Origin: a virus
DNA: 64,000 nucleotides
IMG/VR virus record: IMGVR_UViG_3300035685_000001
Span: 1-64,000 of that record
Reading direction: 5' to 3' (one strand)
In this document: positions 2,839-54,540 of the stretch, one piece after another
Numbering within the stretch: position 1 is the stretch's first letter
How the letters are laid out: each line of letters opens with the position of its first letter
Position numbers and translations under genes: made by a program
The notes under the pieces: model-generated
The model's input: only the letters and a program-made list of their open reading frames with translations
Told to the model about the DNA's origin: nothing
The model's database searches: none

Positions 2839-3333
2839 ATGGCAAACAAAACAGCGTTACGTCTCTTTTATGAGGAGGAGGTTAAACAAAAAGTCTGTGA
2901 CACAACATGGAGTCGGGTTAAGCGACGATTGCGGCTAAACGAAAACACTCTAGATAGCGAATCTAAAGTCAAAGCTGCCGAAAGAATCAAAGCTTACGCC
3001 TATCTCCATAGGGTTTATCCAAACAGGCGTATCACGGTCGATTCAGTTGAGCAGTTTCTAGTCATTAAGCAATTCCTTCTAACTAACTCTGCTGAACTTG
3101 AATGCACTGGTAAAGACATCTATGAGCTAGCAACCCGACTCGATCCACGTCCCTCTGATTCCACCATTTATAGATGGGGAGAAGAAATAGGTATCAAGTT
3201 CAGTAAGACTCAAACTTACAAAGGGCTAGAGGTTAATCAGTGGATCGAAAAGATTGCTAGCAACCCCAAGTACAAATACTTCACACAAAAACTAAGGAAA
3301 ATACAAGATGGACAGAATCAAAGAGTTGCTTGA
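2839..3333 (+). CDS. Hypothetical protein
   Basis: Track ORF; first gene after the repeat-rich non-coding region 2540-2838. Confidence 0.5.
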   Translation: MANKTALRLFYEEEVKQKVCDTTWSRVKRRLRLNENTLDSESKVKAAERIKAYAYLHRVYPNRRITVDSVEQFLVIKQFLLTNSAELECTGKDIYELATRLDPRPSDSTIYRWGEEIGIKFSKTQTYKGLEVNQWIEKIASNPKYKYFTQKLRKIQDGQNQRVA

Positions 3334-7153: not shown

Positions 7154-7488
7154 CAACTTACTTCTATCAAAATCTACGATGGGACGTGCGCTACCCTCCT
7201 AACTGGTCTGACATCAGGCGAGCAACCCATGAGGCTACAGGAGGGATTTGCTGCTGCTGCAAACAAAACTTAAGCACTGAAGTCCATCACAGTCGTTATC
7301 TGTGGAAGGGTGACACGCCAGGGGTTAATGCTTTCGGGCTTTGTAATGGGTGTCACATATTAAGTCACTCTAAGGCTAACTGGATTAAGCACAAAGGAAA
7401 CCCACTCTGGAAAAGTAGAAATACTCCAGAGTGGGAAGCAAAGCTTATAGCGGGGTTCAATACGTTGTCATACAAAACGCATATCTAA
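7150..7488 (+). CDS. HNH endonuclease-like protein (paralog 1)
   Basis: CCCC...EVHHSRY...NAFGLCNGCHILSHSKANW: Cys cluster plus an HH..N..H pattern. Paralog of 8629..9045. Confidence 0.6.
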   Translation: MTTYFYQNLRWDVRYPPNWSDIRRATHEATGGICCCCKQNLSTEVHHSRYLWKGDTPGVNAFGLCNGCHILSHSKANWIKHKGNPLWKSRNTPEWEAKLIAGFNTLSYKTHI

Positions 7489-8231
7489 GATATTTCTCTA
7501 TGTTTTTTAAACCATAAGCGTCTTTGAGGATGCAAAACGTTAAGCCAATATTCATAAATATCTCTTTTTCTTTTAAGACATGGGACTTCACTACTTGAGT
7601 AGATTAAACTTCCAAGCGTTTTGATACTGTCTGCCTTAAATATTTGAACTCTCCAGACACCATTCTCTTGTATGTAATATTTTGAATCAATGTCTATTGA
7701 TTCAAAATATTCTTGAATTCCTTTGTGCATTTTTGATTTGCCGCAAATGTATACGGATAATGTCCCGTTGAATTTTGATTTTGTCTTCATGAGTCTTATG
7801 GAGCCGTCTCCATCTATGCACCCTCTTATAAAACCTGGCATAAACTCATGAGGTATATTGGGCATCCCAATAGTTAGACTTTTACTTTCATATAGCCCTA
7901 TTTCTCTTAATCTATTGGCAATAATTTTATTACTACAGACCCAATCAGAAGCTATTTTATTCTTCCTCTCTTTTATTGGTCTTTTATTTTCGGTAAGAAC
8001 ATTTACAATTTCTAGCATCTCTACATCTTTAGAACAAATGCTGATTTGATTCCCGTTTATATTTCCATCTGTCCAAATTAAACCAAGAACCCAGGCAAGT
8101 TCATCACTCCACTCAAAAAAGAAATTTTCGTTTATTTCGTACTTTACGTACTCTTTTACTAACCCTAAGCGCTTCTTTTGTCTTGCTAGTGTTCGAGGGC
8201 TACCTGTTCCAATTGGCAAAAATGAAGGCAT
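7485..8231 (-). CDS. LAGLIDADG homing endonuclease (two-motif)
   Basis: Motifs LGLIWTDGNI and FIRGCIDGDGSI. Visibly AT-richer than its neighbours and opposite in strand to them. Confidence 0.75.
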   Translation of the reverse strand: MPSFLPIGTGSPRTLARQKKRLGLVKEYVKYEINENFFFEWSDELAWVLGLIWTDGNINGNQISICSKDVEMLEIVNVLTENKRPIKERKNKIASDWVCSNKIIANRLREIGLYESKSLTIGMPNIPHEFMPGFIRGCIDGDGSIRLMKTKSKFNGTLSVYICGKSKMHKGIQEYFESIDIDSKYYIQENGVWRVQIFKADSIKTLGSLIYSSSEVPCLKRKRDIYEYWLNVLHPQRRLWFKKHREIS

Positions 8232-8628: not shown

Positions 8629-9045
8629 ATGAAAAAGCCAAGAAATCCAAAGAAGCGCAAACAAAAGTATGTGAAAACACCAGAGTTTAAACCCAAGCCT
8701 AAATATGATTGGACTGTACGTTATGGCAACTTAGACGACTACCGAAGACTCTGTGCTAGGACTCACTCTGCTACCCATGGACGCTGTTGTGTGTGCCTCA
8801 CAGAGAAGAGTGACGTTATCCACCACAGCAGATATTTAGGCGCGCATGATGAGCCTGGAAAAAACGTCTTCGGAACGTGCCACAGATGCCACCGCAAAAG
8901 GTGTCATTCTAAAGCGAATTGGATTTGGGATGACAAAGACCCTGTTTGGGGGAATCACAACACTGTTGGCTTTGAAAAGAGGTTACAAGGTGGTTTCAAA
9001 ATGCTGAGCGCGGGCAGAAGCTTGAGGATAACTCCAATAGTTTAG
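8629..9045 (+). CDS. HNH endonuclease-like protein (paralog 2)
   Basis: CCVC...VIHHSRY...NVFGTCHRCHRKRCHSKANW aligns with 7150..7488. Confidence 0.6.
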   Translation: MKKPRNPKKRKQKYVKTPEFKPKPKYDWTVRYGNLDDYRRLCARTHSATHGRCCVCLTEKSDVIHHSRYLGAHDEPGKNVFGTCHRCHRKRCHSKANWIWDDKDPVWGNHNTVGFEKRLQGGFKMLSAGRSLRITPIV

Positions 9046-9144
9046 GCTCATACTCAAAACTGACCTTTAAGCCTTACTGTGTAAGAGTTGTAGTAGACGG
9101 AACAAGCAAAAGTTTAACTAGAACCAAGAAGCTGTAGTTCCGTC
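9045..9144 (+). repeat. Structured intergenic repeat, copy A
   Basis: GGCTCATACTCAAAACTGACC...CTTACTGTGTAAG...GACGGAAC(N37)GTTCCGTC. Confidence 0.8.
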
Positions 9145-9250
9145 TATTTTCTGACCATTGTTTACGTCATATTGCGTTAAAGTGTGGTTGTGCTGCGAGC
9201 AAGTTTTAGACAGAACCTCCTCTAACAGCCAGATAACATCCTTCAACTGA

Positions 9251-9349
9251 GCCTCATCTTTAAACTGACTTCTAATGCTTACTGTGTATGAGGTGTAGCT
9301 AGCGGTACTAACGGGGGTATAGTTAAATCATAAGCTCAGTAGTTCCGTC
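9251..9349 (+). repeat. Structured intergenic repeat, copy B
   Basis: GCCTCATCTTTAAACTGAC...GCTTACTGTG...AGCGGTACTA...TAGTTCCGTC. Ends 13 nt before ATG 9363. Confidence 0.8.
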
Positions 9350-9362
9350 CAATGAAGACACC

Positions 9363-9596
9363 ATGACACAAGTTAAATACAGCGTTGAAGAGTATTGTGA
9401 AGCTCTTTGGTATCCTAGTCCTAAGTCATCTTCAGTGTTAGGTAAGCGAGTGGCAACAGCGTATCGTAATGCAGGGCTAGGCGAGCCTGAGACAGATGAA
9501 AGACTAGTTAGAGGCAGATTAATTCCTGTTAAGGTCTACGACTGCCCTAATCAAGTCGTAGAAAATGCCATTCACAAGTACTACGACGAGGTTTAA
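9363..9596 (+). CDS. Hypothetical protein
   Basis: Track ORF starting 13 nt after repeat copy B. Terminator at 9656-9676. Confidence 0.4.
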   Translation: MTQVKYSVEEYCEALWYPSPKSSSVLGKRVATAYRNAGLGEPETDERLVRGRLIPVKVYDCPNQVVENAIHKYYDEV

Positions 9597-9655
9597 GACT
9601 GCCGCTTAAAGTTTATGATTCTAGATTAAACCGTACTCATATGACTGCACATTTA

Positions 9656-9676
9656 GGCTCGTTGCGAGCCTTTTTT
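9656..9676 (+). terminator. Rho-independent terminator
   Basis: Stem GGCTC/GAGCC followed by T6. Confidence 0.55.
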
Positions 9677-9708
9677 AGTACTAACAGCCAGGGAACATAC
9701 CTCTATTC

Positions 9709-9807
9709 GGCTCATGCTAAGAATTAACCTCAACCTGTTGGTATATAAGGCATTTGGCAAACGGAACTAACAAGATATTAACTAGAGAATAAAGTAGTTC
9801 CTTCCGC
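9709..9807 (+). repeat. Structured intergenic repeat, copy C
   Basis: GGCTCATGCTAAG...AACGGAACTA...TAGTTCCTTCCGC. Ends 3 nt before TTGACA 9811. Confidence 0.7.
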
Positions 9808-9810
9808 TTA

Positions 9811-9840
9811 TTGACATTTAGGTAAAACGTCTATTAGCAT
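9811..9840 (+). promoter_or_regulatory. Phage promoter motif TTGACATTTAGGTAAAAC
   Basis: TTGACA at 9811-9816 with TAGCAT at 18-nt spacing. 27 nt upstream of ATG 9867. Confidence 0.5.
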
Positions 9841-9866
9841 TGAGGAAGTCAAGCGAGGTAAATCAG

Positions 9867-10260
9867 ATGGGCGTTAACACAGTTGGTTTTGTTGCAACAG
9901 ACAACAAAGACTTTTTTGAAGTCATGACACTGGTAGAAAAAAGTGCTGTTAGACCTAGTGATTGAAACACACCCGACACTTAAAGACAGGTTAGGCAAGT
10001 TTCCAAGCACAAAAGTTCATCCTTCCAGTAAAGCAGCACGTACTCATTTTGGGTTTAAAGATGAAGACAGAATGATATCAATCAATTTTGACTGTGACTG
10101 TGATTACTCAGACACTTATGAAGGCTCTAAAATCATCTTCAGCCTCGGCTGTAGTGGATGCGCTCAAGAAGTCATACTTAAGCTTTTAGAGGCGTTCAAG
10201 GTTTACGGAGATGTCTACTACTGCTCAAACGATGCAGAGGAGGATTTCGTCAAGCTCTAA
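9867..10260 (+). pseudogene. Hypothetical gene split at an A6 run (frameshift, recoding or homopolymer error)
   Basis: ATG 9867 follows promoter 9811-9840 and reads 32 codons to TGA 9963. The long ORF 9943..10260 lies in the +1 frame and has only a GTG inside the A-run region (A6 at 9937-9942). Removing one A gives a continuous ORF of about 130 aa. Confidence 0.45.
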
Positions 10261-10280
10261 ACACTAACACTGAATCACAA

Positions 10281-10304
10281 AGCGGGTTAACCACCCGCTT
10301 TTTT
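10281..10304 (+). terminator. Rho-independent terminator
   Basis: Stem AGCGGGT/ACCCGCT followed by T6. Confidence 0.7.
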
Positions 10305-10337
10305 AGTGCCCACTGCCAGATAGCCTACACCAAATTA

Positions 10338-10436
10338 GCTCCAAACTGAAACTGACCTCTAATGCTTACTGTCAAAGGTTTTCAGCTACCTACACTAGAC
10401 CTTATTGGATTAGAAAAGAACCAAGTTAGTGTAGGC
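10338..10436 (+). repeat. Structured intergenic repeat, copy D (stem-swapped)
   Basis: Conserved 5' half (ACTGACCTCTAATGCTTACTGT). The distal stem is CCTACACTA / TAGTGTAGG instead of ACGGAACTA / TAGTTCCGT. Confidence 0.8.
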
Positions 10437-10474
10437 AGCATCCGTTGATAGCAGCAAGGTAACTCACTTCAGTT

Positions 10475-10575
10475 GACCTCATGCTCAAAACTAGCCTCAA
10501 ACGCTTACTACTCAAGGTTTTCACTTACCGGAACTAGCAGAATGTAGATTAAAACAGAACCTCAGTAGTTCCGTC
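10475..10575 (+). repeat. Structured intergenic repeat, copy E
   Basis: GACCTCATGCTCAAAACTAGCC...GCTTACTAC...CGGAACTA(N29)TAGTTCCG, a perfect 8-bp stem. Confidence 0.8.
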
Positions 10576-10694
10576 TACTAAGTTTAGACTTCACATAGCA
10601 AAACGCCTTACTGTAAGTCATGGTTGCGAGCATCCCAAGTAATGAAAGTAGTCACAACACCGCAGCTCCAATCAGGGAACATACCTGGTTTTAC

Positions 10695-10792
10695 CTCTTG
10701 CTAGAAATCAACCTCAAATGCTTAGCCCGTAAGCATTACAGCTAACGGTACTACCGAAATCTAACTAATAACAGAAGCACAGTAGTTCCGTC
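10695..10792 (+). repeat. Structured intergenic repeat, copy F
   Basis: AACCTCAAATGCTTA-GCCCG-TAAGCATT (8-bp hairpin), then AGCTAACGGTACTA...TAGTTCCGTC. Confidence 0.8.
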
Positions 10793-10815
10793 TTAAGTCC
10801 TCACCTACACCGCTC

Positions 10816-10853
10816 TAAAAATGGCACCTCTAGAAAGCGTTTCTAGAGGTGCC
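10816..10853 (-). terminator. Rho-independent terminator (leftward)
   Basis: 12-bp stem GGCACCTCTAGA/TCTAGAGGTGCC with the T-run on the minus strand. Confidence 0.7.
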
Positions 10854-10885
10854 AAGTAGGCTAGTGATAGATAGAGCCTTAAGGT

Positions 10886-11266
10886 TTATTCGATCTGTCT
10901 GCTCGCCTCCTGAGTTGCGTCTGAAAGCTTTCTAATAGTCCACCCCTTGTAAGGTTTGCCCCAACGAATGTAGAGACTCACAGAAGGATAAGGCAAGTCT
11001 TGCTCTGCACACCATTCAGGAAGGTCTGTAATGGTAGTCTGCTCGCCTTCAGGACTCGTGGCAATGTAAGTCTTGAGGTGATAGCTTCTGACCTTATCTA
11101 GCATCTCTTGACGGTTGGATTCCCAGTGTCTCTTAAAGTAGCCTTTAGGATGTCCGTTTAAGGCTTGCTGTAGGGTCATTCCTTTCCGCAGTCGGGAATA
11201 GACAGTTTGAGGATTTAAGCCAGCTTGTAGGGCTAGCTGATAGACGTTAGGTGTTTGCTTAGGCAT
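10886..11266 (-). CDS. HTH DNA-binding protein (homing-endonuclease-associated type?)
   Basis: Internal ATG 11266 has GGAGG 9 nt upstream. NVYQLALQAGLNPQTVYSRLRKG looks like an HTH. The track N-terminal extension to 11428 is probably spurious. Terminator at 10816-10853. Confidence 0.5.
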   Translation of the reverse strand: MPKQTPNVYQLALQAGLNPQTVYSRLRKGMTLQQALNGHPKGYFKRHWESNRQEMLDKVRSYHLKTYIATSPEGEQTTITDLPEWCAEQDLPYPSVSLYIRWGKPYKGWTIRKLSDATQEASRQIE

Positions 11267-11413
11267 CCGCTGATACCTCCGTAGGGGCGATCGCTGTCGC
11301 TTTGCTCGGTTCTGTGACTTGCGAGCGGTAGTCTGGTAGTTTTTCCATCGATAATGTTGTTGAGTAGATTCCGATATGTTACAATCATAACAAGTAAATT
11401 GAGTAAATGCAAA

Positions 11414-12073
11414 ATGTACATAGAACACCTCAAAAGAATAAAATCAATTTCATACACATCAAGTACAGGATTAAGAGAGATTACGTCTGAAGTTTTAGCT
11501 TCTGAACTCGGATTATCTATTGAAGATTTTCAAGAATTCTTAAAAGCAAGTTTTGTAAAAGACGTTAAAGTCTTTAATTGCTTTACTATTTTGGCTTTGT
11601 CTCAAATCACGATTTATATAAAGTTTCCAAAACTTGAAGCAAGACTAAAAACTTTTTTTACGCTAGGTAATAATTTAGCTTTTTTATCTGGTGAAGATAC
11701 GGATGTTGTTTACAGAAGTTTAGAAAGGGCAGTCATAACAGAATTTGCATCAACATTAAGAGGTATTGATTCAGAAATTATAAGCGTCCATCCGTGGTTT
11801 GAAAAGAACTACTCTAATTTAATTTCAGGCTCAAAACTCATTCCAGTTAAAGCCATTAACCGCAAACGTCCAGACTTTCTGATTGAGCTTAATTCTTTAA
11901 TTATCCCCGTAGAATGCAAGAAAGTATTCTCAGTCAGATCATTAAGTCAATTGCAAGGCTATATGAAACTCTGGAAGGTTAATAAAGGAGTTGCTGTAGC
12001 AAATAAGTATACTTGCTCTTTGCCTAGCAATATCATTGCTTTGACTGTTTCTAAGGAGAGCGAAGTCTCATGA
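11414..12073 (+). CDS. PD-(D/E)xK nuclease-like protein
   Basis: C-terminal RPDFLIE...IPVECKK fits the D...ExK motif. AT-rich. I prefer the ATG at 11414 over the track start at 11354. Confidence 0.45.
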   Translation: MYIEHLKRIKSISYTSSTGLREITSEVLASELGLSIEDFQEFLKASFVKDVKVFNCFTILALSQITIYIKFPKLEARLKTFFTLGNNLAFLSGEDTDVVYRSLERAVITEFASTLRGIDSEIISVHPWFEKNYSNLISGSKLIPVKAINRKRPDFLIELNSLIIPVECKKVFSVRSLSQLQGYMKLWKVNKGVAVANKYTCSLPSNIIALTVSKESEVS

Positions 12074-12555: not shown

Positions 12556-12580
12556 AGCTTAATTTTCAATGCTCACTAAG

Positions 12581-12615
12581 AAAACCACTGTAACGTTACA
12601 GTGGTTTTCTGCTTT
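12581..12615 (+). terminator. Rho-independent terminator
   Basis: Stem CCACTGTAAC/GTTACAGTGG followed by TTTTCTGCTTT. Confidence 0.7.
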
Positions 12616-22330: not shown

Positions 22331-22354
22331 ACCCGCTCACAAAGCGGGTTTTTT
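22331..22354 (+). terminator. Rho-independent terminator
   Basis: Stem ACCCGCT/AGCGGGT followed by T6. Confidence 0.7.
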
Positions 22355-22409
22355 AGTGCCTGTTTCTAGGCGGAAGGCGAGCTAATAGAAGACCAACTCC
22401 TGTCTAATC

Positions 22410-22509
22410 TGTCTTCTCTAAAAATACACCTCTAATGCTTATGGGGCAAGGTATTGAGCTAACGGGAGTAGCTAGATCTCAGTAATAAGAAGACCCTTGT
22501 AGTTCCGTC
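22410..22509 (+). repeat. Structured intergenic repeat, copy G
   Basis: ACACCTCTAATGCTTA...GAGCTAACGGGAG...CTAGATCTCAGTAATAAGAAGAC...GTAGTTCCGTC. The 3' half is nearly identical to copy K. Confidence 0.8.
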
Positions 22510-22604
22510 TATTTTCTTGCCTGGGTTCACCTCATGAGGTGCGATCGCGCTGGTCTTGATTACCCCAAGCTGCGAGCAACAGTGAAGTAACTACCTTACT
22601 GTAG

Positions 22605-22705
22605 GTTGCCCCACAAGAATTGCCCTCAAGTACTTACTGTATAAGGTGTTTAGCTAACGGGACTAGCGGAATATTTACTAGAGAATAGAGTAGGTTCTCC
22701 CGTCC
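22605..22705 (+). repeat. Structured intergenic repeat, copy H
   Basis: ...ACTTACTGTATAAGGTGTTTAGCTAACGGGAC...TTCTCCCGTCC, with stem ACGGGA/TCCCGT. Ends 11 nt before TTGACG 22717. Confidence 0.75.
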
Positions 22706-22716
22706 CAATAAATCCA

Positions 22717-22745
22717 TTGACGTTCTAATAAAAGTCTATTAAGAT
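22717..22745 (+). promoter_or_regulatory. Promoter
   Basis: TTGACG, 17-nt spacer, TAAGAT. Follows repeat copy H. Confidence 0.45.
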
Positions 22746-24050: not shown

Positions 24051-24080
24051 CTTTCATCCTCAATAGTTTGACTCGCTCCA

Positions 24081-24106
24081 AGCCTCCGAAAGGGGGCTTT
24101 GTTTTT
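24081..24106 (+). terminator. Rho-independent terminator
   Basis: Stem AGCCTCC/GGGGGCT followed by a T-rich tail. Confidence 0.65.
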
Positions 24107-24133
24107 GACATTGTACTAACACTCAGCTAAACT
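24105..24133 (+). promoter_or_regulatory. Promoter
   Basis: TTGACA, 17-nt spacer, TAAACT. Merges with the T-run of the preceding terminator. Confidence 0.5.
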
Positions 24134-25742: not shown

Positions 25743-25771
25743 TTGACATTACGTTGACAATTAGCTAATAT
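25743..25771 (+). promoter_or_regulatory. Triple-TTGACA promoter
   Basis: TTGACA at 25732, 25743 and 25754. The box at 25743 has a 17-nt spacer to TAATAT (25766-25771). Confidence 0.55.
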
Positions 25772-26378: not shown

Positions 26379-26407
26379 TTGACATTAGATTGACGATTAG
26401 ATAATAT
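26379..26407 (+). promoter_or_regulatory. Dual-TTGAC promoter
   Basis: TTGACA, 17-nt spacer containing TTGACGATTAGA, then TAATAT. Confidence 0.55.
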
Positions 26408-27055: not shown

Positions 27056-27084
27056 TTGACAGTGTATTGACATTTAAATAAAAT
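27056..27084 (+). promoter_or_regulatory. Dual-TTGAC promoter
   Basis: TTGACA, 17-nt spacer containing TTGACATTTAAA, then TAAAAT. Confidence 0.55.
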
Positions 27085-27741: not shown

Positions 27742-29145
27742 ATGGCAGCCGTAAGATTAACCCAACAGCGCTGGAGTTTAATAGCCCTACTTGGTTTAAG
27801 TATCACAAGTGGTGTAGTTGCACTTGCTGTTATTTCTCAGAACTATTCCACTGCTGCTAGTAGCAGTATGAGAGCAAAGAATGCCATACTCGCTCTGAGC
27901 GAGCTAGAAGGCTCTCTAAAGGATGCTGAAACGGGTCAAAGGGGATTCCTCCTAACTGGAGACGATGATTACCTAGACCCTTACATAGAAGGAGCAGGGA
28001 TAGCACAAGCTAATGTCGCGAAGCTTGAAAGTCTACTTAAGACCTCAGACACTGTAAGTGCAAAAAGCCTTGAAGATATTAAACACTTCACGGCTCTTAA
28101 GCTTGCTGAACTGGAAGAGACGATTGCCTTAAGACGCTTCAGAAGTCTAGAGGCTGCTTTGCCCGTAGTCAAGTCTGGTGAAGGCAAAGGCTACATGGAT
28201 ATCATTCGAGCTAGGTCTAACCGCATCCGTTACGCTCAAGAGTCCATCCTTGGCACCAACCTTGCAATCCTTGACCAACTCAACACAGTACGCAATAGCA
28301 TAATCCTAATCATTAGCATGGCTTCTGCTGGTATCTTCTGGCTACTCTTCCAGAGTTTTAAAGAAGAGACGGCACTACGCAAGCAAATAGTAGCCAATCA
28401 AGAAGCTGAAATAGAAAAGAATGAAGCTGATGTTAAAGCTCTTAAGGAAGCTGCAGACCTTAAAGAACGTGAGCTAAGCTTCCGTATTCATGATTGGAAG
28501 AATCCAGTAACAGCGATTCAAAGTAGTATCGACCTAATAAACTACTATTACAAAAAACAACAACTTACAAACAGTCATTTTGAAAAACATTACGAGCGCA
28601 TCATTGTAAATGTTGCAACATTGCTGGATGGCTTTAACGATGCTTTGGTAGTAGCGCGTGCAGAAGCAGGAAGACTAGACGTGATTAAGCAATCTACAGA
28701 CCTTGGAATAGTCATCCGAAATAGCATTAATGCCGTAGAGTCAAAAGCTATTAATCACACTATTAGACTGTACCAAAGTGAACTTGAGTACCAGGTAATG
28801 TGTGATGCCAGTTTGGTGCAAAGGGCAATAGTGAATCTACTAGAGAATGCTATTAAACACACTCCAAGTGGTGAGATAGGGGTGTGCCTTCACAAGGTGG
28901 CTACAAAGACGCTCATCCAGGTAGCAGACCAAGGTGAGGGCATACCACCTGAAGACTTACAACGCCTGTTCAGTGCCTTCGAGAGAGGCAATACAACAGC
29001 TAAGGGAACTGGACTAGGTTTAGCTGTTGTGAAGTCGTGTGCAGAGGCTCACGAAGGGTCTGTCAGGGTGGAGTCAAGGGAGGGCTTAAGACTCGCTCAT
29101 CCTGATGGACTGACTTATAGGACTATGTTTACTCTTTCGATTTGA
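27742..29145 (+). CDS. CHASE3-domain sensor histidine kinase
   Basis: TM1, then a periplasmic ETGQRGFLLTGDDDYLDPY (CHASE3 signature), TM2, coiled coil, H-box IHDWKNPVTAI, N-box LENAIKHTP, G1 DQGEGIP, F LFSAFERG, G2 GTGLGLAVV. Confidence 0.8.
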   Translation: MAAVRLTQQRWSLIALLGLSITSGVVALAVISQNYSTAASSSMRAKNAILALSELEGSLKDAETGQRGFLLTGDDDYLDPYIEGAGIAQANVAKLESLLKTSDTVSAKSLEDIKHFTALKLAELEETIALRRFRSLEAALPVVKSGEGKGYMDIIRARSNRIRYAQESILGTNLAILDQLNTVRNSIILIISMASAGIFWLLFQSFKEETALRKQIVANQEAEIEKNEADVKALKEAADLKERELSFRIHDWKNPVTAIQSSIDLINYYYKKQQLTNSHFEKHYERIIVNVATLLDGFNDALVVARAEAGRLDVIKQSTDLGIVIRNSINAVESKAINHTIRLYQSELEYQVMCDASLVQRAIVNLLENAIKHTPSGEIGVCLHKVATKTLIQVADQGEGIPPEDLQRLFSAFERGNTTAKGTGLGLAVVKSCAEAHEGSVRVESREGLRLAHPDGLTYRTMFTLSI

Positions 29146-29240
29146 GGCGGAACTTGTAGAGGTGTTATTAAGTATTAGATCTACTAGTTCTGTTTGTTGG
29201 GATGCTTGCAGGGTAAGATTTTAAGGTTGATTTTGGGGAT
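29145..29240 (-). repeat. Structured intergenic repeat, copy N (only minus-strand copy)
   Basis: The reverse complement reads CCCCAAAATCAACCTTAAAATCTTACCCTGCAAGCATCCCAACAAACAGAACTAG...ATCTAATACTTAATAACACCTCTACAAGTTCCGCCTC. The last 37 nt differ from copy J at one position. Confidence 0.75.
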
Positions 29241-29496
29241 GGAGTGGATGGAGGTGAGTTGCTTGAGAGTTGTTCGCTGGTTTGAGAAAAATGTAGACAA
29301 GCTGATAGGTGAGCAGCCGTTGAGTAATGTGGACTTGGTTATTCTTCAGAAGCTTTTTGATGTTGCTGACAACAATCCAATGTGTGATTGCTATCCGATT
29401 AAGACGGTTGAGCAAATTAAGTATATTAAAGATGTTGCACATATTGTGATAACAAAACAAGATTATGATTATTTTCTGGAATGTGATGCAACTTAG
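29239..29496 (+). CDS. Hypothetical protein
   Basis: The plus-frame translation has normal composition, whereas the overlapping minus ORF is I/L/N low complexity. The start is uncertain (ATG 29239 or later). Confidence 0.35.
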   Translation: MEWMEVSCLRVVRWFEKNVDKLIGEQPLSNVDLVILQKLFDVADNNPMCDCYPIKTVEQIKYIKDVAHIVITKQDYDYFLECDAT

Positions 29497-30388: not shown

Positions 30389-30629
30389 ATTTCCTAAAAA
30401 GGCGATCGCCTTGCGAAGCTCCAACAAAAAAGCCAGCAGAGCTAACTACTGACTTTTTTGCAACTAAATAAGGAATACAACGATAAGCAGATTCAAACTT
30501 ACAGGGTCGATGCTGCAAGTCAGCGCCGTAATCTGCTAATCATCACTTTTCTATTCTATCTCAAAATGCGATCGCACCTCCTGAACTGCCAGCAACAAGA
30601 CCGGACTGGAGACTAACTACCCTCTGTTG

Positions 30630-30730
30630 AGTTCATACTCTAAACAGACCACTATTGCTTACTACATATACGTTACAGCTAACGGCAGTAGCAGAGTTTA
30701 ATAACTAATAACACCTGTTGTACTTCCGCC
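30630..30730 (+). repeat. Structured intergenic repeat, copy I
   Basis: GTTCATACTCTAAACAGACC...GCTTACTACAT...CAGCTAACGGCAGTAGC...TAATAACACCTGTTGTACTTCCGCC. Confidence 0.7.
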
Positions 30731-30747
30731 TATTAACCTTACACCAC

Positions 30748-30776
30748 TTGTCACCTACTTGACATTCAGCTAATAT
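30748..30776 (+). promoter_or_regulatory. Dual-box promoter
   Basis: TTGTCA, 17-nt spacer containing TTGACATTCAGC, then TAATAT. Confidence 0.5.
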
Positions 30777-31455: not shown

Positions 31456-31685
31456 TGAGCAGCAATATTGAGTGGCAAGATGCAAGTAAAGTTAAACCTT
31501 CTACAAATCCCCATGACTCAATTGAGACTGTAGAAGTTTTGATAGAAAGTACTGATGATATTTGGTATTTAGGCATTTATAACTATAAGAGTCAACAATG
31601 GGAAGAAACAACGGATTATCAACCCATCAAAGCTAAATGGTGGTCATACATCCCTGACACACCTGACTCAAAAACGGGAGATTAG
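31455..31685 (+). CDS. DUF551-like protein (paralog 3)
   Basis: IEWQDASKVKP...VEVLI...YLGIYNY...IKAKWWSYIP. TAATG overlap with the previous ORF. Confidence 0.5.
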   Translation: MSSNIEWQDASKVKPSTNPHDSIETVEVLIESTDDIWYLGIYNYKSQQWEETTDYQPIKAKWWSYIPDTPDSKTGD

Positions 31686-31791
31686 TCTCTCTGTTATTAT
31701 CTACACTCTACTAGTGTCGCTAGCTATAAACCTTATAGGTTAAGCATTACAGTTCACTTTTAATCCTGAACATCCTACAACCAAGTTCCTC

Positions 31792-32055: not shown

Positions 32056-32081
32056 CCCAGGCAGCAATGCTTGGGATTTTT
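32056..32081 (+). terminator. Rho-independent terminator
   Basis: Stem CCCAGG/CTTGGG followed by ATTTTT. Confidence 0.55.
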
Positions 32082-32082
32082 A

Positions 32083-32111
32083 TTGACAACGCGCTGACGA
32101 TTAGGTAAAAT
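32083..32111 (+). promoter_or_regulatory. Dual-box promoter
   Basis: TTGACA, 17-nt spacer containing CTGACGATTAGG, then TAAAAT. Confidence 0.55.
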
Positions 32112-38881: not shown

Positions 38882-38938
38882 GGAATATAGCAAATAAGGT
38901 CTAAGATGGGGAGATGCTTGTGTCTCCCCTCTTGTTGT

Positions 38939-41900
38939 ATGTCTATAGACATTGCGTCAGTTTCTATTCCTACGGAGATTAATTTATCGGGATTTAATTC
39001 AGGACTTGCAGCGCTTGAGCGTACCAAAATAAAAAGCCTAGAGGTAGACGTAAAGCTCAACACACAGAGCTTAGAGCGTGACAGAAAGCAGTTAGAGGCA
39101 ACGTTAGCAAAGCCACTAACTCTGAACTTAGAGGTAGATGACACAGCACTACTGACACTTAGAAGACGATTACAGAAGCAAGCACCTTACAAAGTTAAAG
39201 TCACAACAGAAGTAGACACTAGAGGTGTTATTAACGCACGTCAGCAGATTAACAAGTCAATTGGCAATATCCCAGAAGTAAAAATCTGTGTTGACGACTC
39301 AGAGCTTTATGAACTGAACAAGCACATTGAGCTTAAGCGTACTCACGTCAAAGACATCAATAAGTGGATGGCAGCTAATCCTATTACTGTCCATGCGGAC
39401 ACCAGTAGGGTTGATGCTTTTGAAAAGCGCACCATAAAGGGCAAGAAAGTTAGAGTTGAAGTTGAGTATGATGACCCTGGCTATAAGTCAACTGCATTAG
39501 CCACTCATTCAGTTTCATCAACAAAGTCCACGTTGAATTTCACAAAGCCTCTAGAAGCTCAGACAAAGGCTCTTGATTCTGCAATCGACTCAGCAGCCGA
39601 CAAGATAGCCGATGCGCTTGAGAAAGGCTTTAAGAGCCAAAAGAAAGGACTCTTAGGAGAGATAGGTTCAGGCTTGCTACTTGGAGCAACCTTTAAGGGA
39701 GGCTCAGCCTTATTTGATAAAGCTACAGGTAAAGCCAAACAAACCGTTACTCAACAAAAAGAACAACGTCAAGCCTTTACTCAACTTAATTATAAAAGTC
39801 AAGTTGCTGTAACTAAAAAGCAGGTAGTTGTTCAAAATAAAGAAACTGATAAGTTACGCCAAGAGATGCTGCAAATGAATAACAGGGATGTTATTCAGCC
39901 TCTAGCAAAGAAAGCAGGTGTCAAAGCATCTACTAAAGTTCAAGCCGTAGAAGGCTTATTAAGCGGACAGTCTCCACAACAACTTAAAACTCAATTACCT
40001 TACATTGATAATATTCGTCAAGAGGCTGTTAAAACCTCTGAACAATTATCAAAGCTTACAGCAGTTCAGCTTAAAACTCAGTTATCAGATACTACTAAAC
40101 GACTTAGCACCAGTCTCAAAGGGATTAAAGGTACTGCCAATATTTCTGCACTGTCTGACCTTGGCAATCAAATAGAAAAAGAATATCAAGCCGTTATTGC
40201 CACATTATCAGAAGCTACTGAAGAGGATGCAAAAAACATTTTACAGTCGGCAAAGCTTCAGATAGCTAAGATTCGCAAAGCAACCTCAACAGAAGCTCAG
40301 AAAGTTTCTTTAGAAAGCATTCAAAATCAAGGCAATCAACAAGGGCAACAGCAGTTTTTAAGACGCGCCAAGCAACCTAAGTTTAATGCACTCCAACAGC
40401 GTCGCATTAAAGAAATGCAATACAACGCTCGCATTGTAGAAGAGCGAGCAGAGCAAATCTATCAGACTCTTCCAGACCTTCCTAAAGACACTAAACGTAT
40501 TGCACTTGTGTCAGGTGGTTTTGCAAGTAAGCATGGCAAGTCAAGCCATTCTGTTGCTGAAAGAATGAAGCCATTCTTAGGAGAAGGTACTCATGTACAG
40601 CCTGTAGAAAATCCTGATACGGATTGGGGTGACTATGATGCAACAGTTGAGAAAGACCCTATCTCATGGGCAAAAAATGCTGTCAAAGTAGTTGCAAAGC
40701 ATAATTTAGGCAAAGGTTACAAAGAAGACTCTATACAAGCTGCTGCCTACGCTAAAGCTTACGCCAAGAAAGCTAAAGAACAAGGCTTAAACATTCCAAA
40801 CATTGAAGGTTATGGCTACTCAGCAGGAGGTTTTGTAATGCAAGAAGCGGCTGAGTTAAGCCGTGAAACTAGAACACCATTTAAAGGTGTAGGAATAGGT
40901 ACACCTCACTATGGAATCTCCAACACTGCCTCTCAAGAAGATTACATTAGCGTATTAGGTGGACAAGACCCGCTCTCTAAACTTCAACCTGTCAAGTCAC
41001 CTAACCTTAGAACTTATGCTAAAGCAGGTCGAAAACACCTTTTAGAAGAGTACACAAACAATCCGGATGTGCAGCGTGACATTTTCTCCCACATGGGGAG
41101 AGAAGCCCCTTTTGCACTCGGTCAGGACTTTGAAGAGAACATGATGTCGGCAATGAATGCCGCACAAGAAAGTCTTAGCATTAACCCTCGAATGCGTCCT
41201 ACTCTTGCTGCAAGTGGAGCAATTGACCCTGTATTAGACGAACTCACAAAGCATCGTGAAACAATAGCCGATCAAATAGACAACATCCCCTTGGAAATTT
41301 TAGAAGACGTTAAAGCAGCGGATGAAGTATTACAAGGTCTTCAGAATCAACTAATCAAAGGATTTGGACTAAAGGGTAAATCTGTTGCCCCTTTAGCGCA
41401 AGCTGGAAAGAAAGTTATAAAAACACCTGCTCAGCAAATTGTAGGGAATGGAGATAAAGAGCAGCAAATACTTAAAAATTATCATGCCATTCTTAAAGAA
41501 ATGGCAGACGTAGCAGGGGTTACGGTAAATCAAACTCAAGTCCCAAAATTAACTGTAGACCCTGCTAAGCTTAAACGTTTAGATGCAAATGCTTATTACG
41601 AGTCTGGTTCAAAAAATGAAATAACAATTCAACCACGATTGGCAGAATTGCTTGCTCTTCCTACAGAAGAATTAAAAAACTATAGTAAAGAACTAACTTC
41701 TTTGACTCATGAGTTATTTCATAGTATTGATTTAGCTTTTGGCGAAAAGACCATAGGAGGGTTGGCAAGAGGAACAGATCAGATTGAAACTCCCTTATCT
41801 CCATCTGTCACTGTTAACGGTGACAGAATGGCAAGGATAGCAATGGCTGACACTAAGCGAAGTCAGCCACGAGCAAACAATGATTATTTAAAGACCATAG

Positions 41901-44900
41901 GGCAGTTAGAGCAAAGAGCCTATAGCTTCCAGGCATCAACAGGAAAGATTCTAGAACGTGTTTCTGAAAACCCCCAACAAGTTGATCAAATACGAACAGC
42001 AACAGAACGCGCTGAACAATTAGGTAAAGACATTGGCAAGGTTATAAAGCCACCAAATCTGCAACCAATAATTAACAATGGCTTACGGGCTTATAAGGGG
42101 CTTACAGCAAAACAAGCAAAACAATTAGAACAGAATTATAAAAATTTCTTTAAAGAGGTAGCAACCTTATCAGACTTTGACTTAGGTGGTCGCAATCTTC
42201 CTGGATTAAAGGTAGATGAAAAGCTATTAGAACAACAGTCAGCAGATGCTCTTTATGATATTGCAAATAATCAAATAATTATTTCTAAAGAACTTCAGCA
42301 GGCACTAGCTGAAACCCCCGAAGGATTGCAACAATACGCTGAACAGATGGCGGCATTGGTGCATGAGGCTCGCCATGCTATGCAGTTTGACCTTGGCACA
42401 TTGTCAATGGAAGACTTGCAGCTAGGTCTAAAACCAGGTACTAATCTAAAAGCCTTTAATGAGACTTCCTCTGATGCTCAAAAAGCAGCACTTGAATCTG
42501 TAGACTTTGCTGCTCAACAAAATCCAGCAATGAGCGATCGTGCCAAAGCTGTACTTGGAACAGTTGAAGCTGATGCTTCAGACTTTGAACAGAACACACA
42601 AGGTATCTTAGAAAACCTTGCTGCAACAGAAGTCTTTGAGAATGCTTTCGGTGACTTCAAGCAGGAAAAAGCAGCATTCAGAAAAGCCTTAGACGATATC
42701 GAAGCCTACCTAAGCGAAGGTTTAAACCATCTAACAAAAGTTATTACCGACTTTGGTAAGAACTTAGCAGCAAAAGCTCAAAGTATTATCAGTGGATTTT
42801 TAACAGGCAACAGAACGTCAAAAGAATCCTCAAGAGCTTATGGCGGCTTCCAATACGTCAGACGTGGAAAAGGCACTCCTACTCAGTTATCTAACGATAT
42901 ACCCGATCCTTGGGAACAAGAATCTGAAGCGGAATACAGGCGAGCAACACCAGTGCAAGGCACTACACCTCAACTCCCAAGGCTTGACCCTAGAGGCTTA
43001 GGACAGCGCGTAAGAGTTCGCATAAGAAAACCTATTCAACAGACTATTAAGGGTACTCAGCAAGTCACAGAGAAGGCAGTAGAGAGCTTCAATAATCGTC
43101 TAGCAGATTACGTAGAAGGCAATTATAAGGAAGTCCTTAAAGAAGTATCAAGTCTAGCTGGTGCTAGCTTTGATGAAAACAGCTTACCAGAACTAACAGT
43201 CAATGAATCTGCATTAGCTAAAGCTGGCAAAGAAGCTCTTTACGATGCAGAGAAGAATCAAATTATTATTTCTCGACAAATGCGAGAAATGCTTAAGGCT
43301 AACCCCAGAGCATTAGCACAATATTCCAAAAAACTCAAGCCATTAATTGAAGCAGCAAGAGAGTCTATTGAAGGCACTACTGAAGCGGAAGCTCAAGAAT
43401 TTAGCAAACGCTCAGGAGAAGTATTAGCACGTGTAAGCACCAGAGCTAAAGGCAAGCGTTCTAACTACGCCACTCCCATTAAAGGTATCGCTGAGAACCT
43501 AGAGGCTTCAATAGATGCGTTGGCACTTGGCGCGCAAGAGTCAGAAAAACTTAAGAAACGCGCAAGGCTTTTTCTTAATAGTCTCAAGCAAGCTGCTAAA
43601 ACTCCCGACAACATGAATCCTGTGGTACCCGCTACAGAAAAAGCTAAGCCTTACCGCTTAGGAGCTGGAAAGTCTATGCAAAGCATGAGGCGAGCCTACA
43701 GGGAGATACGGAACCCCACACCTTTCTTGCCAGAAGGCAACACCGCTCAAAGGGTATTTACACGTGTTGTTCCTAGACCTGTCAGAAAAGCAGTTCAACA
43801 ACAAGCTGAAAGAGCAAAACAGGTATCAGGTGTTGACCTAAGCAATCCTACAAGCGCATTTCAAGCACTAGACAAAGCTGTTCAATCTGTCAATAAGCGC
43901 TTTAAAGTTCCTATTGAACTCTATGCAAAACTTAACATCAAGGGAATGGCTGATGTTGTTCAAGATTTGCAAAAGATAGTAGGCAAGGAACTAGATAAGC
44001 TAGAAAAGAAGGCTCAGACATTACCTTACTTTGGAGACTTGGCAGGCAAAGCTGTAGGAAGCTTAAAGTCTTTTGCAATGGCGGGTTCTGGAGCTGGAAT
44101 AGTTGCCTTAAGATTCTTGAGTGTACTTGGTCGTTTTACCGGACTTGCCACACTTGCCGCTCAGATTCAGTTAGTAGCAGTTCAATTTGATGGACTTAAG
44201 AAAAGCTTCATTCAAGTCTCAAACGAAGCTAACCGAGGTGCTGAAACGTTTGATAGAGTAATGCAATCTGCCAGTGAGCTAGGAGTAGATAAAGCTACAG
44301 CCGCTCAAGGTGCAACTCAAATCTTTGGTAATGTTAACCCTAAGATGGGTAGCCGAATGGCTGAGCAGACAAACAGGGCTGCTCAAGAAGCGTCGTTAAT
44401 CTACTCAAGTACTCCTCAGCAATCAGAGCAGATATTCTCAGCATTTGCCAACTTGACTGATGAATCTACCTTAAGTATGGGTAGCTTTCAACAAATGATG
44501 AAAGCCATCCCAGGTAGTCTTGATACGGCTGCTCGCTCTATGGGTATGACCAATGCTGAGTTTCAAAACTTCATTCAGAGCAACAGCATACTTGTAGATG
44601 ATTTCTTGCCTAGATTCATTCAACAAATGAATGTTGACAATCAACCTAAGATCGCTGGTGCAATGGATACTCTCTCCACAGCAACAAATCGTTATAACAA
44701 CGCACTAGTAGATGTGCAGTTAGAAATAGGTAAGACAATCACACCAATTGAGAAGTTAAGAGTACAGTCAGCGGCTTGGATGGCTGAAAATCCATTGAAG
44801 TACATGGCTGCTGTCTTTGCCAAGTGGTCTACTTCAATGGCTGTATTGTCACTCGTTAAGTTTATGGTGGCAAGTAAGAATGTTTTGGCTACTGTAATCC

Positions 44901-53169: not shown

Positions 53170-53284
53170 GATTTAAGTGGTAATTGGGTCTAAGTAAGGG
53201 TGAGGCTTCACCCTTTTCTTTTTCAATAGTAATCCTAATTTGCCCAATTGTCAAACGAACACAGCAGCAACACACCTGTAATCA

Positions 53285-53384
53285 GTCCACTCAAAAAGTA
53301 AACCTCTAATGGTTACTGCATATAGGTTTCAGCCAACAGAACATACAGTATCTAATACTTAATAACACCTTTACAAGTTCCGCC
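53285..53384 (+). repeat. Structured intergenic repeat, copy J
   Basis: CCACTCAAAAAGTAAACCTCTAATGGTTACTGC...ATCTAATACTTAATAACACCTTTACAAGTTCCGCC. Ends 2 nt before ATG 53387. Confidence 0.75.
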
Positions 53385-53386
53385 TC

Positions 53387-54040
53387 ATGAAATACTTTCT
53401 AGACACAGAGTTTATTGAATACCCTGGTATCATAGACCTAATTAGCATCGGTCTGGTTAGCGAAGACAATAGGCATTATTACGCAATCAACAAAGATTGC
53501 AACTTCAAGAAGGCTAACGACTGGGTAAGACAGAATGTGTTGGCTACTTTGCCGCCTTACAACCCTATGCCAACAGAATGTAGTCCTAGTACATGGGAGG
53601 CGAGCAAAGCTTGGAAATCTAGAGAAGACATAAAAATAGAGTTATCTGATTTTATGGGTGTAACTTATGATTTTGACCCTTATATCAGGGAAGGGTGGAT
53701 GGGACTTTATGATGTTGTCTTTAGAAGAAAAGTAATTTATGAGAATTTTAGATTGAAAATTCACGTAAAGTCACCTGAGATATGGGGGGAATGGTGTTCT
53801 TACGACTGGGTATGTTTTGCTCAACTATTCGGCACCATGTCAGACCTGCCTCAAGGCTTCCCTATGCGCTGTAGAGACATCATTCAGCTAGCAGAAGACC
53901 AATTAGGCATACCAGCTATTCAACTACCTCCTAGCCTCGAAACAGAGGGCAACCATAATGCCCTACTTGGAGCTAAGACCGTCAAAATGCGTTATGAGTG
54001 GCTGATAAATAAGGCAAAGCAGACGGGAGAACAGAAGTAA
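53387..54040 (+). CDS. DEDDh-type 3'-5' exonuclease
   Basis: N-terminal FLDTEF (Exo I) and C-terminal GNHNALLGAK (Exo III-like). The start lies 2 nt after repeat copy J. Confidence 0.5.
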   Translation: MKYFLDTEFIEYPGIIDLISIGLVSEDNRHYYAINKDCNFKKANDWVRQNVLATLPPYNPMPTECSPSTWEASKAWKSREDIKIELSDFMGVTYDFDPYIREGWMGLYDVVFRRKVIYENFRLKIHVKSPEIWGEWCSYDWVCFAQLFGTMSDLPQGFPMRCRDIIQLAEDQLGIPAIQLPPSLETEGNHNALLGAKTVKMRYEWLINKAKQTGEQK

Positions 54041-54054
54041 CTGACTGGTGAAGT

Positions 54055-54153
54055 GCCGTCTATCAAAACATGTGTGTGTTGCTTACTGCATATAGCGTTG
54101 AGCTAACGGGAGCACCTAGATCTCAGTAATAAGAAGACGGTTGTAGTTCCGTC
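54055..54153 (+). repeat. Structured intergenic repeat, copy K
   Basis: ...GCTTACTGCATATAGCGTTGAGCTAACGGGAGCACCTAGATCTCAGTAATAAGAAGACGGTTGTAGTTCCGTC. Confidence 0.8.
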
Positions 54154-54291
54154 CAATTAGACTAGGTACAAGACAGAGTTGATATCTCAGTCTTGTCTTA
54201 CATCGGGATTTTTCTGCGAGCAATGGGCGCTATCTGTTGCTCACTTTTTAATGGCTTTGAGACAGCATCACAAAAATAACCACTTTACTTC

Positions 54292-54391
54292 GGCTTCATG
54301 TTTTAAACAGACCTTAAAGCCTTATGTAGAGAGGCTTTGAGTTAACGGTACTAGCAGCAGTCTAATTAAAACAAAAGCTCAGTCCTTCCGT
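54292..54391 (+). repeat. Structured intergenic repeat, copy L
   Basis: GGCTTCATGTTTTAAACAGACCTTAAAGCCTTATGTAG...GAGTTAACGGTACTAGC...CAGTCCTTCCGT. Confidence 0.75.
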
Positions 54392-54540
54392 TATTTCTTG
54401 GTCAACAGAAAGTCACTCATTCCACTGCTCTCCTCATGTGATAACAAAGTCTCACTTGTTGATTGCAACAAAATTTTATCTTACGACTCGCAGATTGATG
54501 GACTAAAAGCATGAACACAGGAGTAACTAGTCTCAAGGAT

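Follow-up and report, generated by a model that had tools for sequence, protein, structure and literature searches.

A repeated intergenic cassette with complementary classes of inverted-repeat arms in three uncultured cyanophages

The DNA considered here, hereafter the window, is the first 64,000 nucleotides (nt) of the uncultured virus record IMGVR_UViG_3300035685_000001. Iterated nhmmer searches find in it 15 copies, lettered A to O, of an intergenic cassette of about 115 nt that contains a long-range inverted repeat. The copies lie in five clusters: A–F at 9030–10792, G and H at 22395–22704, I, J and K between 29146 and 31787, and L–O at 53269–54639. The element is real, is conserved in three uncultured cyanophages and was previously undescribed.

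Copy D (10322–10435, plus strand) directly follows an intrinsic terminator at 10281–10305 on the same strand (AGCGGGTTAACCACCCGCT followed by TTTTTT). Its 5′ arm reads CCTACACTA at 10389–10397 and its 3′ arm TAGTGTAGG at 10427–10435, a perfect inverted repeat of 9 base pairs (bp) around a 29-nt spacer (10398–10426); past one A·C mismatch there is further outer pairing of GCT with AGC. The consensus arms of the family are ACGGAACTA and TAGTTCCGT, and those of copy D stand in the same register. Four pairs are changed (A–T to C–G, G–C to T–A, G–C to A–T and A–T to C–G), and all four are Watson–Crick. An earlier note on this DNA had drawn attention to these double substitutions. The arm sequences, the coordinates and the perfect stem that it gave for copy D are as read from the sequence, and each of the four differences is indeed compensated on the opposite arm. 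Its comparisons with copy E, which has CGGAACTA at 10529–10536 and TAGTTCCG at 10566–10573, and with copy H, which has the compensated ACGGGA/TCCCGT, hold as well. The relationship of copy D to the family extends beyond the arms: its flanks (70 nt upstream), its spacer and its register align with those of the other copies, and the family profile scores it at 65.5 bits (E = 2.9e-19). D-type arms are found again in five copies of a second phage, and an ortholog in a third phage retains the D-type 3′ arm. Folded as RNA, copy D has a minimum free energy of −17.7 kcal/mol (z = −4.2).

How widely is the element distributed? The contig JAXMMZ011226602.1 (approx. 122 kb), which contains the window, supplied the flanking DNA of the same phage and eight additional copies, so that this phage of about 120 kb carries at least 23. 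Pattern scans of IMG/VR, in which the degenerate pattern was searched in viral contigs only, yielded 34 copies in two related uncultured phages, 24 seen in IMGVR_UViG_3300036939_000014 (119 kb) and ten in IMGVR_UViG_3300041964_000073 (18 kb). In total there are 57 hits, 55 of them with both arms present. (Copies outside the window bear labels beginning L093, L110–L113, L116, L117, L121 or L122, followed by a number; L110_6509 lies just upstream of the window.) In nucleotide sequence the three phage contigs otherwise have almost nothing in common.

The unit begins with AACTGACC, ends with GTTCCGT and has very few insertions or deletions (indels), even though its copies are only about 60% identical. 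From 5′ to 3′ it comprises a direct-repeat/promoter-like module of rigid length (65 nt), an AGCTA box and the inverted repeat, which lies inside the 3′ half and is the only one in the unit. An invariant AAC box begins the direct repeat, AACTGACCTC, which occupies columns 1–12 and 29–40, 28 nt apart (in copy O, 54525–54536 and 54553–54564). At offset 28 the identity reaches 55%, compared with 26% at other offsets. Positions 10 and 38 co-vary by identity, being C/C in 19 copies and G/G in 12, with six mixed (C/G or G/C). Covariation by identity is not explicable by base pairing; it hints that one DNA-binding factor has two sites here, or that the two repeats evolve in concert. The promoter-like skeleton of the module reads ttRACC, 16 nt, TAWRG and then TT, with an unusually conserved spacer, TAATGCTTAC; 55 of 57 copies carry A54, and A29 and A30 are invariant or nearly so. 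In L111_4961 the skeleton reaches the sigma70 consensus (ATGACT, 17 nt, TATAGT).

The inverted repeat itself spans 47 nt and begins 1–5 nt past the conserved AGCTA. Its 5-bp core extends to 9–11 bp. In 51 of 56 copies exactly 29 nt separate the 9-nt arms; this spacer is rich in A and conserves T23, T29, A30, A32, A35 and A37 (T..TAnA..A.A).

With the register fixed, the core positions k1–k5 of the arms fall into four complementary classes. Class T1, CGGAA/TTCCG, has approximately 42 copies. Class T2, CTACA/TGTAG, has six, namely copy D and five in the second phage. Class T3, CTCCA/TGGAG, is represented by L110_6509 alone, with 11 perfect bp, and class T4, CGACA/TGTCG, by a single copy whose arms match, L113_8599 (8 perfect bp); mutationally, T4 stands between T1 and T2. 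L122_1663 has 10 perfect bp. The inner pairs also vary together (CTA/TAG, CGT/ACG, GCA/TGC, GTA/TAC), and at k8 there is a switch from A–T to T–A between phage lineages. Both the family and the compensation within it are wider than the earlier note had seen.

Is this complementarity more than the composition of the columns would give? In the 55-copy alignment 74.7% of the cells are paired, against 64.4% in column shuffles, and the covariation score is 0.271, against 0.124; neither observed value was reached in any of 500 shuffles. In slid registers 26–44% of the cells are paired. (An earlier version of these shuffle and slide controls used 34 copies.) The excess of Watson–Crick pairs is significant at k2, k3 and k4, where the classes switch, and at k7 (p = 0.009) and k8 (p = 0.005). 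Positions k1 (C–G) and k5 (A–T) are invariant or nearly so in all classes, and positions outside k0–k8, k9–k11 included, pair at chance level. From a register-aware alignment RNAalifold predicts the arm helix (7 bp), on the gene strand, as the sole consensus helix; from a plain MAFFT alignment it predicts no structure. Outside the arms the T2 copies cluster loosely, at 60–66% identity, which suggests an old subfamily kept by selection. Since several classes occur within one genome, intra-strand pairing is a more economical explanation than several paralogous DNA-binding proteins. The pairing of the arms may take place in RNA or in single-stranded DNA, or the arms may instead be symmetric half-sites.

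The other copies of the first cluster all lie on the plus strand. Copy A (9030–9144) has arms ACGGAACAA (9097–9105) and TAGTTCCGT (9135–9143); with flanking bases the stem becomes TAGACGGAAC/GTTCCGTCTA, 10 bp. Copy B (9235–9349), with arms GCGGTACTA (9302–9310) and TAGTTCCGT (9340–9348) and a T·T mismatch, ends 3–14 nt upstream of candidate ATGs of the open reading frame (ORF) at 9363–9596. Copy C (9694–9808) directly follows an intrinsic terminator at 9655–9677 on the plus strand (AGGCTCGTTGCGAGCCT and a T run). Its 5′ arm is ACGGAACTA (9761–9769), and its 3′ side, TAGTTCC-TTCCGC (9795–9807), permits two pairing registers; between this copy and the next ORF lies a plus-strand sigma70-like promoter at 9811–9840 (TTGACA, 18 nt, TAGCAT). 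Copy E (10461–10575; arms CCGGAACTA at 10528–10536 and TAGTTCCGT at 10566–10574) stands head to tail after D. Copy F (10678–10792; arms ACGGTACTA at 10745–10753 and TAGTTCCGT at 10783–10791) has no downstream gene, and the hairpin that follows it at 10822–10854 is the terminator of a convergent minus-strand ORF. Two ORFs for LAGLIDADG-type and HNH-like endonucleases, at 7485–8231 and 10886–11428, both on the minus strand, bracket the A–F cluster, and the second is parted from copy F only by that bidirectional hairpin.

In the second cluster copy G (22395–22509, plus strand; arms ACGGGAGTA at 22462–22470 and TAGTTCCGT at 22500–22508) has an intrinsic terminator upstream, at 22331–22349. Copy H (22589–22704, plus strand; arms ACGGGACTA at 22657–22665 and TTCTCCCGT at 22695–22703) has a compensated G–C pair at k4 and is followed by a sigma70-like promoter at 22717–22745 and then by a gene from 22800. 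Of copies I, J and K two are on the minus strand. Copy I (29146–29260; 5′ arm ACAGAACTA at 29193–29185, 3′ arm AAGTTCCGC at 29155–29147) adjoins the stop codon of a convergent ORF (27742–29145, plus strand) and has the lowest hidden Markov model (HMM) score in the family. That ORF carries CHASE3 sensor and HATPase_c histidine-kinase domains, an unusual cargo for a phage. Copy K (31674–31787), with 5′ arm GCGACACTA and 3′ arm ATCTCCCGT, is unpaired, either a hybrid or degenerate. Between them copy J (30615–30730, plus strand; arms ACGGCAGTA at 30682–30690 and TACTTCCGC at 30721–30729) has G–C at k6 and a sigma70-like promoter downstream at 30748–30776.

Copies L–O all lie on the plus strand. 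Copy L (53269–53383; arms ACAGAACAT at 53336–53344 and AAGTTCCGC at 53375–53383) ends 3 nt upstream of the RNase H ATG (53387). It lies in a divergent intergenic region with a minus-strand sigma70-like promoter (53254–53226) and a terminator-like hairpin (53196–53215). Copy M (54039–54153; arms ACGGGAGCA at 54106–54114 and TAGTTCCGT at 54144–54152) overlaps the 3′ end of the RNase H gene, with a terminator downstream at 54218–54242. Copy N occupies 54277–54391 (arms ACGGTACTA at 54345–54353 and TCCTTCCGT at 54383–54391), and copy O (54525–54639; arms ACGGTAGAA at 54592–54600 and TACTTCCGT at 54631–54639) ends 4–5 nt upstream of the ATG of the ORF at 54644–55087.

What kind of phage carries these copies? 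Its genes include those for a major head protein, a maturation protease and a cement protein, and for RNase H, helicases, DNA polymerase III alpha, ThyX, methyltransferases and homing endonucleases. The ORF at 38906–51565 (plus strand) encodes a protein of 4219 amino acids (aa) with a Peptidase_M23 domain at about 2813–2901, a GH19/lysozyme-like domain at about 3028–3183 and a weakly tape-measure-like C-terminus; some 2800 N-terminal residues are without a match. This content (head, protease, cement and replication genes and the lytic 4219-aa protein) indicates a large tailed phage. The HIP1 octamer GCGATCGC occurs 17 times in the 64 kb, against about one expected by chance, at a G+C content of 42%, and its abundance indicates a cyanobacterial host. 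The sequence thus points to a large tailed phage of a cyanobacterium.

Its relatives are distant. Pieces of 25 kb found no match by megablast in the phage and plasmid collections, and by tblastn the major capsid protein is at most 27% identical to that of any isolate. The 37 loci around relatives of the RNase H (up to 55% identity) contain no copies, and narrow-pattern scans of the genome and metagenome contig collections returned chance matches only. A 134-aa protein was fruitless as a query; the relative's own sequence, used as the query, did find matches. The palindromic pattern ACGGNACTA-N25-35-TAGTNCCGT had 52 hits in viral contigs, all of them chance matches by HMM. At the gathering thresholds of Rfam 15 no family matched anywhere in the window. 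An E-value search of 8900–10900 gave three weak hits (E 0.6 to 4), none of them family-like: the terminator upstream of D, the hairpin at 10823–10853 and a minus-strand snoRNA model at 9624–9750 that overlaps the 5′ part of copy C. ARAGORN found no tRNA or tmRNA.

Some further observations concern the same DNA. The same sequencing run (SRR11829740) contains a second contig, whose overlap with the window is identical in sequence (L112 compared with L111, beyond the window end). Outside the overlap the gene calls of L112 and L111 differ, the giant protein having 4208 rather than 4219 aa and an Arc/HicB-like small ORF being missing, which suggests co-occurring strain variants. A perfect 32-bp palindrome without a spacer (AGAAAACCACTGTAAC/GTTACAGTGGTTTTCT) lies at 12579–12610. 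The spacers of copies I, J, L and L111_1325 share 11–15 nt (TTAATAACACCTCTA) with the minus strand at about 39220–39234, inside the giant ORF, and are therefore complementary to the mRNA of that gene. The match is borderline when compared with shuffled spacers, and the site is no degenerate copy of the repeat. Apart from this one borderline 15-mer, the longest genome matches of the spacers are within the range of the shuffles, and we reject the spacers as antisense guides. In the 4219-aa ORF sequence comparison shows no similarity to RNA polymerases, and an N4-like virion RNA polymerase has no sequence support in the roughly two-thirds of the genome that the analysis covered.

Where do the units stand with respect to genes and other signals? 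Most copies point the same way as the genes around them, I and K being the exceptions. Eleven units lie 20–55 nt past an intrinsic terminator (C, D, G, L, N and others). Three (L, L110_6509 and L093_6450) stand back to back with a divergent sigma70-like promoter and leave their own gene with no other promoter available. Ten have a separate sigma70-like promoter within 70 nt downstream (C, H, J, L111_8373 and others). Between the 3′ arm and the start codon that comes next there are anything from 3 to more than 130 nt, and neither the RNase H gene after copy L nor the ORF after copy O has a Shine–Dalgarno sequence. About 26 of the 57 units have no co-oriented ORF within 160 nt. These comprise upstream members of tandem arrays (D-E-F, A-B, G-H, M-N-O and a row of five units in the second phage) and units that precede terminators or convergent genes (F, I, M, L111_4548, L093_5667 and L110_6509). 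Terminators lie 67–78 nt downstream of L110_6509 and copy M, a layout compatible with short transcription units, and L111_4548 and L111_4961 flank one small gene. Eight of the nine units with a T2, T3 or T4 3′ arm are not gene-proximal.

What, then, might the cassette do? We tentatively favour, at somewhat less than even confidence, a phage promoter module whose transcript starts with the stem-loop. The placement of units after terminators and in divergent regions, the start codons that they abut and the conserved skeleton all argue that the 5′ module carries a promoter. We infer that RNA polymerase, probably with a phage factor, would start at or near AGCTA, 1–5 nt before the 5′ arm, so that every transcript would begin with the stem-loop, its arms paired in the RNA. 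The −10-like hexamer, without the canonical last T, would be weak for the host holoenzyme, which is why a phage factor may be needed; such a need fits the replication genes downstream of several units. Stem-loops at the 5′ terminus protect mRNAs from 5′-end-dependent decay. The one proposed here could likewise shield the RNA, offer a phage or host protein a handle to recognize, or do both; the four arm classes would then be different handles, each still able to fold. That the arms are so highly conserved in sequence suggests a protein that also reads the stem. Gene-proximal copies would drive mRNAs such as those of RNase H, of DNA polymerase III alpha and of small ORFs; gene-less tandem copies, or copies just before terminators, would yield short non-coding hairpin RNAs. 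A bolder version, which we consider improbable, is that the cassettes are self-contained units making handle-hairpin RNAs, that the four mutually non-complementary classes form an orthogonal address code read by class-specific phage or host factors, and that the constant, single-stranded 29-nt spacer is a presented functional surface. Such a code could give temporal classes of transcript, or families of short regulatory RNAs from the gene-less arrays.

Several observations weigh against a promoter with a simple RNA hairpin. The earlier note had reasoned that, when pairing is kept and sequence is not, a folded nucleic acid is more likely than a sequence-specific protein site. The compensation on which this rests stands; the reasoning in that form does not, for no other segment of the unit is as conserved as the arms, and their variation comes in discrete classes rather than as free drift. 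The covariation statistics for which it had called, applied here to 55 copies from three phages, give a similarly divided answer: the signal beats every shuffle, and most of it comes from a few class switches rather than from many independent events. The spurious covariation outside the register that linked class changes produce likewise indicates few independent events. Within T1 the covariation at k4 and k6 is not significant, T·T, G·G and C·T mismatches are common, and about 25% of all cells are unpaired. Four hybrids (K, L116_2781, L121_162 and L117_3029) combine a T4-like 5′ arm with a 3′ arm that does not match it, and L116_2781 lies just upstream of a conserved gene start. L122_5310 has one mismatch at a position where its ortholog L093_5667 is paired, and orthologs in the second and third phages differ by single-sided changes that make or break pairs. 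Nor is there a wobble bias on the gene strand, where A·C mismatches (19) outnumber G·U pairs (5).

The energetics and the promoter evidence are no kinder. Fold energies range from −1 to −18 kcal/mol, with most z values between −2 and +1; most copies fold no better than shuffled sequence, and in the minimum-free-energy folds of K, L, M and O the arms are unpaired. Only 12 of 57 copies have the usual final T in the −10-like hexamer, and a consensus scan calls no sigma70-type promoter inside most units. At the ten units with a separate sigma70-like promoter downstream, the unit is dispensable as the only promoter. Copies I and K oppose the orientation of the neighbouring ORFs. The rigid 29-nt spacing and the identity-covarying direct repeat fit a DNA–protein architecture at least as well.

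Such an architecture is the strongest rival, possible in our view and somewhat less probable than the promoter module. The arms would be symmetric half-sites on double-stranded DNA, 38 bp apart from centre to centre, at which a phage regulator binds as a dimer or tetramer; with the direct repeat added, the whole would be a rigid nucleoprotein promoter or regulatory region, the classes would answer to different regulators or temporal classes, and the complementarity of the arms would be the identity of the half-sites. The conservation of the arms and their discrete classes, the 29-nt spacer in 51 of 56 copies, the near-absence of indels over 115 nt at about 60% identity and the identity covariation (C/C or G/G) at offset 28 all favour it, as do the lack of wobble bias, the weak fold energies and the near-invariance of k1 and k5 across classes. 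It has a precedent in the ESAS inverted repeats of Cluster K mycobacteriophages, for which the authors disfavoured an mRNA hairpin (PMC3203893). On the other hand, three classes in one genome would need three cognate proteins, and no candidate regulator was identified. A half-site distance of 38 bp is unusual for a dimer, and the complementarity reaches the inner variable positions k7 and k8 (11 bp in L110_6509, 10 bp in L122_1663, 9 bp in D).

Might the stem-loop act in RNA with no promoter of its own? As a cis-acting element between cistrons, in 5′ leaders and in 3′ untranslated regions of read-through transcripts it could serve in processing by RNase E/J, in stability or as the site of a translational-control protein. 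The same pairing evidence applies, the A-rich spacer would be single-stranded, and units do stand between co-directional genes, before start codons without a Shine–Dalgarno sequence and between a stop codon and a terminator (copy M is one example; L111_4548 and L111_4961, around one small gene, are another). Yet many units (C, D, G, L, L110_6509) directly follow terminators or sit in divergent regions with no co-directional gene upstream, where they would rarely be transcribed, and the conserved, rigid 65-nt 5′ module and the gene-less arrays of up to five units are left unexplained. We regard this explanation as unlikely.

Less likely still is a module of recombination or mobility, PeSL-like portable regulatory repeats that would mainly serve to shuffle small genes through homologous recombination. 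Template switching or gene conversion, maintaining the palindrome at the level of DNA, would then keep the arms matched, rather than selection on a fold. Units do lie on either side of small ORFs without known function and adjoin homing-endonuclease ORFs, they occupy non-orthologous sites in three phages with almost no other nucleotide similarity, and PeSLs are a documented precedent (PMC4122927). But the T2 arms recur in copies only about 60% identical, which implies purifying selection and not recent conversion, and orthologs in the second and third phages show single-sided changes. A role in recombination is in any case compatible with a regulatory function; the two are not exclusive. Finally, that copy D is a chance palindrome or an unrelated insertion, the outcome that the earlier note had named as fatal to its claim, has only the general commonness of short inverted repeats in its favour and is excluded, to near certainty, by the homology of flanks and loop, the same arms in the second phage and the shuffle and slide controls.

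Several familiar elements were considered and rejected. The unit is not an intrinsic terminator: its loop has 29 nt rather than 3–8, a terminator scan calls no unit on its own strand, and only 13 of 55 copies have at least five T in the 8 nt after the 3′ arm. An N4-type hairpin promoter fits in its core stem of 5–7 bp and fails in its loop, which would have 3 nt and not 29. A T7-type RNase III site needs about 20 bp or more of largely double-stranded RNA; here there is no pairing beyond 9–11 bp and the consensus helix has 7. A MITE or REP repeat is excluded by the lack of terminal inverted repeats at the ends of the unit. A sigma70 promoter formed by the −10-like TAnAAn of the spacer, or with the 5′ arm as its −35, lacks the final T and has inconsistent spacing. 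A second hairpin, GCTTAC..GTAAG, is unsupported as a consensus helix, and the top-scoring column pairs that might have signalled a pseudoknot or some other covariation are artefacts, produced when classes change as linked sets.

We classify the element as a new family of phage intergenic regulatory cassettes, marked by the long-range inverted repeat, the fixed 29-nt spacer and the four complementary classes. In its working it is closest to the repeated regulatory cassettes of large phages, PeSL and SAS/ESAS, and its arrays resemble NsiR1; it is a member of none of these.

The PeSLs (promoter-early stem-loops) of T4-type phages consist of a terminator stem-loop followed by a sigma70 early promoter (PMC2839356, PMC4122927). 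Like them, the present units are short, composite, repeated signals between small variable ORFs, associated with terminators and possibly portable as modules. Unlike them, the unit is 115 nt long, its promoter-like part is off consensus and its inverted repeat is downstream; there is no sequence homology. Tested as PeSLs, 11 units are preceded by terminators, and the sigma70 consensus is met in essentially one copy, L111_4961. PeSLs also mark indel or replacement breakpoints between related genomes; the present units adjoin small ORFs, in three phages that are divergent or fragmentary. This phage has, separately, terminator and TTGACA-promoter pairs of its own. Between plus-strand genes, terminators followed by near-consensus sigma70 promoters (TTGACA, 17 nt, TAAAAT or TAATAT) form PeSL-like sites, distinct from the repeat family, at 24080–24133, 25743–25771, 26379–26407, 27056–27084 and 32056–32111.

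ESAS are 17-bp imperfect inverted repeats 4–13 bp apart, and the 13-bp SAS lies 3–8 bp from the start codon; their authors found little support for the formation of an mRNA hairpin (PMC3203893). The likeness lies in repeated, oriented elements upstream of many phage genes and in an imperfect inverted repeat whose consensus differs by group. The differences are the 9-bp arms, the 29-nt spacer, a start-codon distance of 3 to more than 100 nt, the many gene-less copies and the complementary classes. We exclude membership, given arms that pair over at most 9–11 bp, the 29-nt spacer and the variable distance to the start codon.

NsiR1 of heterocystous cyanobacteria is encoded in tandem direct repeats of about 130 nt, each a promoter of about 70 nt and a hairpin RNA of about 60 nt (PMC4030482). 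The layout is similar to that of D-E-F, M-N-O and the five-unit array, whereas most of the present units are without a terminator and copies are also dispersed before protein-coding genes. Membership is again excluded: there is no Rfam hit, and the DIF motif TCCGGA is not at −35, where ttRACC stands; CCGGA occurs only within some 5′ arms.

Two more comparisons concern the stem and the number of copies. The 5′-terminal stabilizer stem-loops of bacterial and phage mRNAs, such as that of the ompA leader, are single stable hairpins with small loops that protect against 5′-end-dependent attack by RNase E or RNase J. In common with them, the present stem would begin within a few nucleotides of the proposed 5′ end; it differs in its 29-nt loop and marginal stability, and its 5′ end is inferred. 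The stoperators of Cluster A mycobacteriophages (L5) are 13–14-bp asymmetric repressor sites, present in dozens, co-oriented, in short intergenic regions. They share with the cassette the dozens of oriented intergenic copies aligned with transcription; what they lack is an inverted repeat, a 115-nt context and complementarity by class. The Cluster O mycobacteriophages are the wrong parallel for a promoter-flanking inverted repeat, theirs being a 17-bp palindrome.

The organization of transcription in large freshwater cyanophages is almost unknown, and the family offers an abundant, defined and testable control element. Its natural stem-swap variants resemble an experiment in compensatory mutation. 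If the cassettes are promoters with a 5′ hairpin, they would define a phage-specific class of expression and provide portable parts for synthetic biology in cyanobacteria; were they operators, the classes of arm would predict several cognate regulators. Either way, the family is a useful marker for one lineage of cyanophages.

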